NCBI GenBank assembly: GCA_003971905.1
Contig: RSEE01000047.1
Coordinates: 434,001-498,000 of the forward strand
Length of the DNA: 64,000 nucleotides
Reading direction: 5' to 3'
Source: Moniliella sp. 'wahieum'
Lineage: Eukaryota
In this document: in pieces, positions 55,267-59,670 of the stretch
How positions within the stretch are numbered: position 1 is the first letter of the stretch
Layout of the letters: each line of letters starts with the position of its first letter
Program-made: the position numbers and the translations under genes
Notes under the pieces: generated by a model
Database searches by the model: none
What the model was told of the DNA's origin: nothing
The model's input: only the letters and a program-made list of their open reading frames with translations

Positions 55267-55697
55267 ACACAGGGTGTTTGGAGGGGGGGGTATGGGGGGG
55301 GTATATTACAAGGGTGTCCGACCGGTCCAGATTTAGGGGCGGGTTTTTGAAACTGCTATTTTTGATGTTTCTGATGGCCGGAGCGCGTGCGGCGGCACTG
55401 TACGAGTCTAACGGTACCATTGGCTCACCACCACCACCACTGGTTGGCGCACCACACCCAAAAATGTGTCATAGGAGGGGGTCACCCGAGGTACTCCGCC
55501 CACTTGGTATTTTTTTTATCGATAACGTGGACGACCTCTACCCATTATGAAACGCGCGTGCTTCGTAGCTTTCGACTGATCTAGGTTGCAGCGCAAGCCG
55601 GCGCGAATTCGCAAACATACACTGTTTTGAACAGGGTCAACCCCCGGGGGGCATGACATATATATGCCGGTTAAGGTGACCCCGCATTGGGATTACG

Positions 55698-55925
55698 TCT
55701 TCAACGTTCAACGTTCAACATTCAATATTCAACGTTCAACGTTCAACGTTCAACGTTCAACCGGTCAACCGTTCAACAGTTCAACCGTTCAAGGTTGAAC
55801 GTTGAAGTTCAACCGCTCGACGTTCAACCGCTCAGCCTTGAGGTCAAGCTTGCGGCCCCTGAGGCTCAAGCTCAAGCTCAACGGTCAACGTTCAACGTTC
55901 AACGTTCAACGTGTTCAACCAGGCC
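55698..55925. repeat. (GTTCAAC)n 7-bp array mixed with other NNTNANN units
   Basis: Many tandem GTTCAAC/GTTGAAC, GCTCAAG and CCTGAGG units. Confidence 0.9.
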
Positions 55926-56640
55926 GTCGGCCCGGTGGTCCTCTCGCTGGTTGACAAGTTAGAAGTTACGACGTGCGCTTGAGCTATTCTAACCATGGAA
56001 CAAGCGGTGGCTCGGGCCGCTGCTCGCGCAGCCCCTCGATAGCCACCTTCCGAGGCGCTTCCTGGGGCAGTACCGACGACCTGCCATACATCTGCTACGA
56101 CTCTGCCGCGCCCGTGCTCATGCAACCCCCCGGCACCCATAGTGTACCATCGCTATCAGCTTGGCTGTTACTGTTGTGGGATCATGAGTTGCAGTGCAAG
56201 CGCGTGGTGGGTGGAGAGGTCCAGGAGGTCTGGGGATGGTGCTGGCGCATGCAGATGGCCAGGTGGACACCCATCCCGCACGCAGATTGACCAGATGTTG
56301 ATCCATTCATCATCAGTCCCATCAATGCCTCAGTCCAGCAGGCCACGAGAAGGAGGCGGGGGGCGCGGGGGCGTGCGAGGTGGTGCGCGGGGCAGTTGGG
56401 CCTGCAGGCACGTCCGCTGAGCGTTGAGCGCTGGCCGAGCTCTCCTACACTGGCATCTGGCGGGTGCAGCGTGGCGGCGTTGCCGTTGTGAACGGCAGCA
56501 AACAAGGGGCAGCGGGCGTAGCGGCGGTGCTCTGCGATGCGGCAGGCGTTGTGGCCCCAGTCCATGTCAGGCACAGTGCAAGCCGCATGGCCCGTGCACT
56601 TGGTGTGCCAATGCGACCTGTGATTCGCATTGGGTGCTGC

Positions 56641-56750
56641 CCTGAGGCGCCTGAGGCCTGAGGCCTGAGGCCTGACCGGTGACCTGAGGCCTGAGGCGTT
56701 GAAGACGTCGAAGCTTGAGGCGCTATCATGCATGTCATGCATCATGCACA
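56641..56750. repeat. (CCTGAGG)n / GGTGACC 7-bp array
   Basis: CCTGAGG at 56641, 56650, 56657 and 56664, then CCTGACC GGTGACC. Confidence 0.9.
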
Positions 56751-57245
56751 TGCAAGTGCAGGCAGGACCGCACCAGCACTGAGGCACAGCCGGTGCGGCA
56801 CCAGCCACCAGCGCTGAGGTGTTGAAGTACTATCATGCAGGTGCAGGCGGTACGACACCAAAGCTGGGGCGCAGGCAGTGGGAGCACTCGCACGCAGGTG
56901 CAGTGGCTGCACCACCGCTGAGGCCGAGGCCCGGCGGTCGGAGCACTGGACCGCGGGCGTATCGATCATCGCCGAGGAGTCACCGAGCCACACCGATGAC
57001 CGAGGACGTCGATCATCGAATCATCAATAGAATGACATACAATGATGTAATGAGTACTGACATGGTACTGACAAGTGACGCGTGATGAGTGACTGGAGAC
57101 TGGCTTGGACATGCGTGGTACTGCGGTGGCTGGTGCGCTGGTGGCGCGTGACGCGTGACAGGTGACAGGTGCCGCGGTGCGGTGATGCAGCGCATGGGGC
57201 ATGCAGCATGCGCGATTTGACATGCGACATGACATGGACATGTGC

Positions 57246-58161
57246 CCTAGACATATGTTGTCAGCATCAATTGGTGATTTTCAATTTGAAATCGGCCCCC
57301 ACCTTGTTTGAAAAACCACTAGGTGAAAACCAGCGAGCCCGGTTGGTGAAAATTGTACAAGCTCTGGGCCGGGCCGGCGGGCCGACAGGCCCTGGCCTAG
57401 ACATATTTTCCGGAATGGATGGGAAGATTCCGCTCCTGGATTGAGTGCCAGAGGAACAAAAAGTACCTGGGTACCCTCCGTGCCGTCTACGTGGAAGGAT
57501 TTGGGTAGATTTGATTCCTCTGGCCGGCCGTCCAAGCCTGTCAGGGGGCGTCACCCACCCCCCACGCCCCCGGGTGACGAGGGCGGCGGCCACGCGCGTC
57601 CCCCTCGCCAGTTTGCAAATACCAGTGGCGTTTTAATTACGTGTGGCGCATCACTTGCACCCCCCGCTGCAGCCGCGCCACCACTCTCACCACCATGTTG
57701 AGCGCCGCCACCACCACCATACCATGCCCAGCGCCGCCATCGTCCTCTCCGCCCCCAGCGCGCAGCTGGCGCTCATGCAGCCTAGACGTATGTTCAAAGA
57801 TTCAATAGTCCCCTGGCGCATAACAATCGAGGCAGAGGTTATCGCCACCGGGCTAGCCCGTATGCGATACCTCAATAGTCCTGAGGCCTATGACCTATGT
57901 AGTCACGGCCGGGCCCGCCGGCCAGCCCGGTGACCGCCCAACGGTGACCGCCGCCTGCGAGATGTTGGCCGACGGCCTAGACATATTCCCAACTCCCGAG
58001 GGATGTCACGGGACTGGCTGTGTCACGAGATCCCTGTGATACATCTAGATGTACTGGAGGGATCCCACCTGATGTATCCGAGGGTATTTTTGGCCTTGCC
58101 GTCATGACCCCCGGCGCACCCGGTGACCGCCCACCGGTGACCAGCATTAATTAAATAGCAA

Positions 58162-58195
<34 letters not shown>

Positions 58196-58270
58196 ACCCG
58201 GAAGGCCGTCGCCACCACCTACCACCACCACCCAACGCAAAAATATTTTTTTTCAGCACACCTCCTGATC
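57246..58270. repeat. Diverged tandem dimer, about 530-bp unit
   Basis: Both halves run CCTAGAC(A/G)TATGTT..GGCCGGGCC..GGCCTAGACATATT..TTAATTA..(CCA)n. Confidence 0.6.
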
Positions 58271-58615
58271 TACCTGGCAGACACCATATTCGGTGTCGTT
58301 TGGGGGGTAGCCCAACATTTTTCTTTGAACGTGTTGTATTCGGCCCAGAGGGGTGTCATGTTTTGGTGGCAGGGGGATCGGAAGGGCACCCTCTGGACTG
58401 GGGTGTGTGAAATCTGAGGTCAAACGGACCGTGCACGGCCGAGATACGACGGATGGGGTGGGTCGGGGTGGGTAGGGTTAGGGATGGGTGGGTGTAACTT
58501 TTGAACGGGTGGCCCAATCGAAAAACGGAGGCCATATGCTGCATAGAGCGGACGATTTTATAGCGAGCTATCGCCTCGGCATAACTCCCTCCCCTTCGGG
58601 TAGCGAGCTATCTAC

Positions 58616-59670
58616 CCTAGTCAGATATTCACGTGAAGGACTGCATAACTCCGTCGATTTTCTCTATGAAAATGACGTTTTTCGTCTCAGAATTGCAGAG
58701 GTTGCAAAATGTCAGGCACCACAGTGTGTAAGTGCGAAAATGTGGCGCCTGACAGATGGTGACCTCTGACAGTTTGGGCGCGGGGCCTGTGTCCTGGAAT
58801 GCAGAGTTTACGCTGGCCCGTCTGAAACGTGCGGAGGGCGAAGGGAGGTGCCTGACGGTTGGTGACCTCTGACAGTTTGGGTGCGGGGCCAGTGTCCTGG
58901 CGGTGCCAGCTCGAAATGATCGGCATGGGGGCTACTTACTAATGAGCCCGCATGTGCCGCCCGCTAACACGGCATGTGCCATGTGACATGTGACACACGC
59001 TAACGCCGCATGCGGCAACGGATGTGACAGGGTCCGGGGCGGGGAATGTTCCGTGCGGGGTGGAGCCAGAGTGCAACCGCGGTGGCATGACCGGGATGGG
59101 GCATTGCATGTACGTGTGAGGGTGGGTTACAATGGGTGTGTGACATGCGACGCCCTGGGGACGCCGCGGTTTGGTGACGATGGTACGCCCGACAGGCGAC
59201 CGCATCCACGTGCGTTACCGGGGAGCGTTGAATGTTGAACGCCGGGGCTGGCCTGGAGCTGCAAAAGCGTGACGCGCAATGCTTGCAGCTGCTGCCAAGA
59301 TGCCGCGTGCCGGAGCGGGGGGGGCGGCCTCCTGCGGAGGACGCAGTGGCGCAGGGTGTGCGCTCAGGTACATCGTTGGCAGCGCGCTCCCGCACGTCCC
59401 TCAGGCCCAGCGCTCAGTCTGAGCTGCCAGTGCTTACGCCCAGCGCCCAGGCCTCAGGCCTTCAACGTTCAGGCCTTCGGTCCAGCTCGGTTGGGATTCA
59501 CTGCAAAAGCGCGGCCCTGCTGTACTGCCGGGTGGGCCTGGGGTGCAAATGCCAACTGTGTTTCGATGCATGCTGCAGATCAGGACAGTGCACACCAGTG
59601 CGCTGAGCTTGCCCTGAGCAAATATAGCCGGCCCTCCAACGCTGCTTGCGCCGTGTCCAGTCCCGACTCT
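58616..59670 (+). repeat. 1.05-kb direct repeat, copy 1
   Basis: Near-identical to 61624-62657; internal 103-bp duplication; begins CCTAGTCAGATATTCACGTG. Confidence 0.95.

Follow-up and report, generated by a model that had tools for sequence, protein, structure and literature searches.

Hairpin sealing of broken flanks, hairpin opening by the host and the footprints that end joining then leaves are established for hAT elements, Transib, RAG and the MULE Muta1 (PMC5499845; this and the other papers given by accession are cited from excerpts of their text). Here we describe, in the genome of Moniliella sp. 'wahieum' (69.5 Mb assembled in 223 contigs, to which the C-numbers in this text refer), a pattern of tandem heptamers of the form NN-TNA-NN that resembles such footprints. 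The window, i.e., the whole 64,000-nucleotide stretch that was analysed, spans positions 434001-498000 of contig C47 (RSEE01000047.1), and the heptamers were first noticed in its stretch 55690-59480. We propose that they are probably the excision scars of cut-and-paste transposons that duplicate 7 bp, form flush hairpins and are EnSpm/CMC-like. A family with terminal inverted repeats (TIRs) starting CTCACTG, present elsewhere in the genome, is the best candidate for their source but probably not the sole contributor.

The scars carry the same flank-mirrored bases at the joint as are seen for Transib, for the RAG/V(D)J coding joints and for Muta1, and in the Muta1 hairpin both flank strands are complete (43+43 nt), which makes it flush, as the even palindromes found here require (PMC5499845). 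Unlike all three, the Moniliella scars involve a 7-bp NN-TNA-NN duplication, occur about once per 3 kb genome-wide and are stacked in arrays; in addition, Muta1 excises precisely in more than 90% of cases in yeast (PMC5499845), whereas the dominant product here is a gain of 7 bp. Fungal 7-bp duplications have been reported for hAT7 of rust fungi and for Kyakuja (KDZ) of Agaricomycotina (PMC12730594), and some hAT families carry them in Repbase annotation (PMC4455052). The duplication length is thus shared with hAT7, in a basidiomycete, and P-nucleotide footprints are shared with Ac/Ds, whose palindromes are odd, being centred on the complement of the element-adjacent base (PMC5873905). Kyakuja is alike in duplicating 7 bp but has CA..TG ends without TIRs (PMC12730594), compared with 83-nt TIRs and CT..AG ends in the family described below. 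Galileo, of the P superfamily, likewise duplicates 7 bp of a quasi-palindromic target, but its consensus, GTANTAC, has an ANT core (PMC4168063).

The heptamers and the rule of their junctions

All six repeat stretches quoted in a preliminary description of this DNA, which had been made from the letters alone, are exact. The window holds 32 exact 7-bp tandem runs, compared with 4.7-6.0 in three kinds of local shuffle, and the stretch 55690-59480 holds 12 of them (mean 0.26 and maximum 3 in 300 shuffles), together with 23 junctions that conform to the rule given below (0.1 in shuffles). In 39 hand-picked 10-kb stretches of other contigs (390 kb; a fortieth was excluded, since it had been picked around an array) we counted 239 exact 7-bp tandem runs where 26.2 were expected. 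Nearly half, 119 of the 239, are self-reverse-complementary (2.2 expected), and the core of 115 of these 119 is TNA, being TCA or TGA in 95 of the 115. The linkers between the cores comprise 13 of the 16 possible 4-bp palindromes. Two TNA cores with the same middle base enclose a palindrome 319 times in the same stretches (13 expected), and ANT, CNG and GNC cores show no comparable enrichment there. Other tandem unit lengths are also in excess (5-fold at k=6, 29-fold at k=9 and far more at k=12); the distinctive signal is the self-complementary TNA class, not the raw excess at k=7. The statement of the preliminary description that non-coding DNA is built from such heptamers was too strong: the junctions are present, but they cover only 245 of the 3791 bases (6.5%) of 55690-59480. 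None of the 50 junctions of the window lies inside the open reading frames (ORFs) that match Pfam families (11.1 kb). Altogether, the NN-TNA-NN heptamer pattern is confirmed.

We write a site as ab-TNA-yz, with a prime for the complement, and call the bases between two TNA cores the linker. A linker yz ab is a plain duplication, b'a'ab a left mirror and yz z'y' a right mirror. At isolated non-palindromic targets we found 67 left mirrors (1.6 expected), 77 right mirrors (0.2) and 23 plain duplications (1.0), giving 144 mirror joints to 23 plain ones, a six-fold difference; palindromic targets gave 30 plain duplications (0 expected). Because mirror linkers so far exceed plain ones where the flanks are not complementary, the palindrome is usually created by the event rather than pre-existing, and targets need not be palindromic.

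Junctions of all lengths were then counted in 565 kb, made up of the 39 stretches, 125 kb of C47 and 50 kb around two transposase places, with the linker required to be a prefix of yz z'y' followed by a suffix of b'a'ab and overlapping array sites counted singly. Observed and shuffled counts were 134 and 14.2 for +6, 456 and 5.3 for +7, 61 and 0.5 for +8, 44 and 0.8 for +9, 3 and 0 for +10, 4 and 0.2 for +11, and 0 and 0 for +12. The +9 junctions consist of two whole heptamer copies with two mirrored bases in between, and the series from +6 to +11 fits a single rule, namely a 7-bp duplication joined via mirrored (P) bases. When TNA was not assumed, a duplication plus two mirrored bases was seen 517 times at size 5 (66 in shuffles), 90 times at size 7 (6.5) and 12 times at size 8 (0.5), staying above chance at sizes 8-10 despite the fall at 8; of the 517, 340 have T and 354 have A where they are expected. 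Palindromes centred 2 nt from TNA are overwhelmingly even (1091 vs 48.5 expected) and hardly ever odd beyond chance (73 vs 50). The genome thus contains palindromes of even length whose centre falls at the end of the duplicated target, as a putative flank hairpin would be expected to leave. The hAT-type footprint geometry was considered and rejected, its symmetric form occurring twice (0.8 expected) and its odd palindromes being those just given; a count of 1-base palindromes was confounded and given no weight.

The gene regions of the window have two further copies each at approximately 87-96% identity, in two collinear sets (window vs C10, C88, C7 and C54), and the assembly looks like a three-subgenome hybrid, which allows three-way comparison. 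In 278 kb of aligned columns from six homeolog pairs, which are not independent of one another, 2556 clean indels show a bump at 7 nt (48; neighbours 36 and 21) and a second one at 14 nt (18; neighbours 7 and 4). The +7 indels that the preliminary description predicted between related copies do exist, as 17 of the 48 clean 7-nt indels match the junction rule exactly, and in most of these 17 the short allele is not a palindrome. Fourteen rule events from two pairs were set against the third copy, giving four gains, one loss and one unclear case, with eight events for which there was no third copy. Rule-conforming indels number 21 against 13,097 substitutions in these non-independent pairs, or about 1 per 600 as a lower bound, and at this ratio the rate of scar formation is not absurd.

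A transposon family with CTCACTG ends

No piece of the TIR family lies within the window. A pattern search of the genome gave one facing pair of ends, on C11, among the 100 of 412 matches listed. The C11 element (locus L126, 141-4989) is 4.85 kb long, with 83-nt inverted arms at 93% identity and 10-11-nt subterminal repeats at both ends. Its first 20 bases occur at 17 places in the genome (control 1), of which 14 are true ends and three, resembling chance matches, were excluded. All 14 ends start CTCACTG, and since the two outer bases are invariant they belong to the element. Thirteen of the ends directly adjoin NN-TNA-NN; the fourteenth, on C8, does so with two extra bases. Four of the five two-ended copies are flanked by an exact 7-bp duplication with a differing eighth base (GTTGATG on C34, CATCAAC on C35, GATCATG on C23 and GATGATG on C20), which are the TIR elements with 7-bp NN-TNA-NN duplications that had been suggested as worth searching for. 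The C20 copy is a 378-bp miniature, and its two paralogous empty sites each hold the heptamer once. Linkers follow the flanks and the elements duplicate 7 bp, so a PIF/Harbinger-like 3-bp TNA/TWA duplication with fixed end residues was rejected, in line with the earlier argument against a 3-bp target site duplication plus 2+2 terminal residues. The distinct targets of the family number nine and have C or G at the centre in all nine, as do 80% of 167 scar targets. The C11 and C23 copies share 98.9% identity over 3 kb (25 gap bases), and because they are closer to each other than the subgenomes are, the family moved recently.

Two observations concern the structure of these copies. C11 and C23 share the same 250-bp insert, which resembles a solo long terminal repeat (LTR), and on C23 (L128) a younger copy is situated roughly 1 kb within, or next to, an older copy that has one end and is common to C8 (L131). 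Elsewhere, a blind scan of 1.03 Mb for TIRs with 7-bp duplications returned 24 rows, mostly arrays, and the one candidate from it that was examined further (L036, 4.9 kb, with TNA-centred flanks) was discarded as a chance pairing, since it spans host genes; the large homeolog insertions that we inspected were LTR elements or solo LTRs with duplications of about 5 bp, or plain deletions. In the C54/C7 stretches, two LTR elements are present in one homeolog only, one of 3.7 kb (98% identical LTRs) and one of 5.3 kb (identical 200-bp LTRs).

The coding content of the family points, at some distance, to EnSpm/CMC. None of the seven ORFs of the C11 copy or the two of the C23 copy matches Pfam. The coding remnant of the element has P0001 as its sole library match (E 3.5e-4), P0001 matches the C34 ORF that follows a PF02992 (Transposase_21) match (E 1e-16, pairwise), and the remnant matches the same C34 ORF directly (E 6e-6, pairwise). 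Atlas neighbours of the element ORF stand at 0.94-0.95 and are basidiomycete, with DUF4218 on 11% of the members of one cluster. The remnant is C-terminal and frame-broken, and candidate stretches for the motifs sought (DDE, C(2)C, H(3-4)H) are visible in it. A second element ORF gave no usable Atlas match and no significant match to P0001 (E 0.11). From these sequence comparisons, kinship of the element with EnSpm/CMC is likely. Transposase_21 ORFs stand at the same place in two subgenomes, on C17 (L098) and C62 (L125), and another is on C34 (L099); no inverted ends surround them within 30 kb (C17), 10 kb (C62) and 20 kb (C34). All are broken by frameshifts or stops in an assembly that is itself rich in 1-nt indels, and the C17/C62 ORFs are either old fossils or domesticated. 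A protein search with the C34 ORF matched that ORF alone. Genome searches with the profiles PF13359 and PF04827 (Harbinger), PF05699 (hAT) and PF18758 (KDZ) gave no match, three of the four being silent in control genomes too.

EnSpm/CACTA elements carry TIRs together with arrays of short subterminal repeats. The CTCACTG family resembles them, specifically the CMCT clade, in both respects, and CACTG occupies positions 3-7 of its end. Fungal representatives include CNIRT6 and CNEST of Cryptococcus (PMC12810828, PMC12730594). CNIRT6 begins CACTG and makes a 3-bp duplication (PMC12810828), CMCT members make 2-5-bp duplications and mostly have CA..TG ends (PMC12730594), and fungal EnSpm elements have CAC..GTG ends. 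In contrast to the CMCT members, the family found here has CT..AG ends and duplicates 7 bp. Because two defining features, the duplication length and the outer bases, fail, we do not file it as an EnSpm member, and it is best called EnSpm/CMC-like. In a largely open-access literature we found no account of an EnSpm element with a 7-bp duplication or of such a genome-wide signature; the supplementary tables of PMC12730594 could hold a 7-bp CMC family.

Proposed origin of the scars and its alternatives

On the proposed route, a 7-nt staggered insertion would leave ab-TNA-yz on both sides of the element, as it does in the CTCACTG family. Excision would then close each flank into a flush hairpin that retains every base. 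Host enzymes would open these hairpins some 2 nt away from the tip, roughly the distance at which Artemis opens hairpins, yielding the arms yz-z'y' and b'a'-ab. End joining would overlay the two 4-base arms. Retention of one arm would give the commonest product, +7, half of each arm would give a plain duplication, and more or less of both would give +6, +8, +9 and up to +11, which are the products observed. Such an overlay would account for the dominance of +7 and for the equal frequency of the two kinds of mirror. The scar would hold new palindromic TNA targets, so that a site could be hit again, and from two perfect units onwards arrays may also grow by slippage. Scars persist mainly outside genes because most of them shift the reading frame.

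The preliminary interpretation is supported in part, although its mechanism, a staggered cut with fill-in at palindromes, is mostly wrong. A 7-nt staggered attack on NN-TNA-NN stands, whereas plain duplication of pre-existing palindromes does not, given the preponderance of mirror joints and the non-palindromic short alleles of the homeologs. A cycle of insertion and excision is likely, and TIR elements with exact 7-bp duplications do exist. Abortive cutting with fill-in, offered as the other option, cannot write mirrored bases, and a hairpin step is needed. Of two non-palindromic duplicates taken as true 7-bp duplications, GATCAGC at 18722-18735 is plain, but GGTCATC at 24020-24033 is part of a compound scar (24011-24040), in which the two remaining joints are of the mirror type. 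The lead to the P superfamily, whose Galileo has an ANT core, did not hold, as ANT-centred units are not enriched in the 39 stretches. To our knowledge, P-type excision uses no flank hairpin.

A number of observations weigh against the excision-scar reading. Some concern the junctions themselves: 31 of the 48 clean 7-nt indels miss the exact rule (some fit by eye with later substitutions), and linkers at isolated non-palindromic targets that are palindromes unrelated to the flanks (45 vs 12.2 expected) or have both halves inverted (6 vs 1.0) are unexplained by it. Others concern the element copies. Next to the heptamer, 10 further bases set the empty sites of the C20 copy apart. In the C11 copy, one of the five paired ones, the flanks are both NN-TNA-NN and differ from each other, and about 60 bases are missing relative to a paralog, which has the look of an element-made adjacent deletion. 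Against about nine surviving insertions stand isolated scars that number roughly 20,000 when the 197 counted in 565 kb are scaled up to the genome, and in about 1 Mb of the 69.5 Mb we saw no locus where one copy held an element and another carried a scar. An intact transposase was not found, by profile searches that are insensitive, the kinship with EnSpm/CMC depends on a chain of weak matches, and we found no paper on flank hairpins for CACTA/EnSpm itself. Finally, A or T stands beside TNA at 17 of 18 positions in targets of the family and at about 42% in scars (binomial p ~4e-6). Because its targets are A/T-flanked, the TIR family alone mismatches the scar pool, which includes the CCTGAGG, CGTGACG and GCTGAGC types; it fits the TG/TC-type scars, the two commonest, but not the numerous GC-flanked ones, and it takes older or sister families, or an enzyme less strict in its choice of target, to account for those.

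The discrepancies in number and in flanks also speak for an element-free source, in which a nuclease that forms hairpins, be it a domesticated transposase or an enzyme of the host, attacks NN-TNA-NN directly, the break is repaired into the mirror joints seen here, and the TIR family merely shares the target. There are thousands more scars than surviving elements, with more varied flanks, and the Transposase_21 ORFs without inverted ends, at the same place on C17 and C62 and again on C34, would suit such an enzyme. We nevertheless regard this source as unlikely, since the +9 and +11 joints need a target that has been duplicated first, which is done by insertion and not by a bare cut; the interruption of the Transposase_21 ORFs by frameshifts and stops also speaks against it, with the reservation about 1-nt indels made above.

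Replication errors alone, with fold-back template switching on a T-N-A mini-hairpin mirroring the bases and slippage copying the unit, would require no missing enzyme, would be in keeping with the many over-represented tandem sizes and may well have lengthened long perfect arrays such as that at 55699-55919. Such errors give no reason why TNA alone (115 of 119, with GNC, CNG and ANT not enriched) should be affected, leave the mirror axis fixed 2 nt from TNA and the length cap near 7 unexplained, and reduce the matching 7-bp duplications of real elements to coincidence; we consider this explanation very unlikely.

The route of the preliminary description, a plain 7-nt staggered cut at a palindromic NN-TNA-NN followed by fill-in and religation, draws on the plain duplications, which exceed chance at both non-palindromic and palindromic targets and are polymorphic in the case of 18722-18735. 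It is highly improbable as a general explanation and largely refuted as the main route, for mirror joints are six times as frequent, short alleles are not palindromes and fill-in does not produce the +8, +9 and +11 joints; it may account for a minority class. Selection that maintains motifs as protein-binding sites or DNA structures, so that they would not be mutation scars, could account for a pattern that is clustered and confined to non-coding DNA, and some heptamer units resemble bZIP or bHLH sites; 13 different linkers, each predicted by the neighbouring bases, and presence that varies between homeologs and paralogs make it a most improbable account. A base-calling or assembly artefact is scarcely credible even in an assembly so rich in 1-nt indels (1524 of the 2556 clean indels, and the 25 gap bases in 3 kb between copies at 98.9%), as the pattern avoids coding ORFs, recurs at the same sites in diverged paralogs and matches the duplications of real elements.

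Sites, setting and implications

The individual sites read in the window are collected in the table.

Junction sites in the window (coordinates of the window; homeologs and paralogs named by contig)
Position	Feature	Details
18722-18735	Plain 7-bp duplication of GATCAGC	Single copy in C88 homeolog
23519-23537	GGTTACC array	Three states: no extra unit in C88, one in C10, two in window
23808-23821	Left-mirror +7 insertion, non-palindromic TCA site	Absent from both homeologs (gain)
24011-24040	Compound scar on GGTCATC	+9 mirror joint, plain duplication and +7 right-mirror joint; read from sequence
45411-45424	Left-mirror +7 insertion, non-palindromic TCA site	Absent from C10 homeolog
55699-55919	GTTCAAC array	11 junctions of +7 and one of +9; units in both orientations
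55904-55919	+9 joint in GTTCAAC array	Full 7-bp duplication plus two mirrored bases
56416-56429	+7 unit at TGA site	Linker differs from a palindrome by one base; also on C82, absent from C151 and C72
56641-56696	CCTGAGG array	One +9 joint, three perfect units, one left-mirror and one right-mirror joint
56733-56746	Right-mirror +7 scar, TCA site	
57011-57025	+8 scar	Four right-mirror-arm bases retained, plus one
57056-57073	+11 scar	Two whole ACTGACA copies (non-palindromic), two mirrored bases from each side between them
57147-57171	Left-mirror +7 scar, then GGTGACA units	
58982-58995	Perfect TGTGACA pair	Recurs at 61966-61979 via 3-kb duplication

The +11 scar is the fullest form of the joint. 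The GTTCAAC array varies in length and composition among its paralogous copies on C82, C151 and C72, and its mixed joints together with these differences suggest that it grew by both repeated hits and slippage. The CCTGAGG array has one extra unit at its start compared with C82 and C72.

The stretch 55690-59480 sits in a contig-end block that recurs on C39, C135 and C136 (100%) and on C37 (99%), and has diverged paralogs on C82, C151 and C72. Because the block is repeated at 99-100%, its copies on the former four contigs are not independent. From window position 54753 the block runs through 64000 and on for another 752 bases; over 10 kb it matches the start of C136 without a difference, and it is either a real subtelomeric duplication or an assembly duplicate. 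At approximately 58450-58620 it holds an internal copy of a repeat that makes tandem runs at many contig ends and whose reverse complement adjoins CCCTAA telomere repeats at the start of C82. Positions 58616-59676 and 61624-62663 form a direct duplication at about 3-kb spacing (94-100% identity), and 57247-58050, within the portion common to the contig-end repeats, carries five spaced copies of a motif like CCTAGACATAT. Diverged tandem units lie at 53826-54849 (165-184 bp) and 51415-51709 (136 bp), and a 300-bp dispersed repeat, solo-LTR-like, lies at 21621-21929, with 27 other copies at 82-90% among the matches listed. The genes at 7203-40970 encode cactin, a PHP-domain protein, an Est1-like protein, a class II tRNA synthetase, a GH3 glucosidase, a mitochondrial carrier, RPL15 and RPL5, the closest matches of RPL5 being fungal.

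If the heptamers are excision scars, they offer sequence evidence on EnSpm-like cutting, on which we found no paper, and the CTCACTG family is a candidate for a CMC lineage whose duplications exceed the 2-5 bp published so far. The rule is so exact that the genome alone suffices to reconstruct which target was lost, how long its duplication was and where the hairpin would be opened, and the junction signature can be screened for in any genome within minutes. Scars would also count past transpositions for which no element survives, at a rate of at least about one rule indel per 600 substitutions. We give roughly even credence to a broader proposal, in which an undescribed CMC-related lineage with CT..AG ends and 7-bp NN-TNA-NN duplications wrote a self-renewing grammar into all the non-coding DNA over tens of thousands of cycles, each scar being a better target and the footprints giving birth to heptamer satellites; at its boldest, it would have a TIR-less domesticated transposase doing the writing now. 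Microsatellites are usually ascribed to slippage, and here one class of them appears to have been born from transposon exits.

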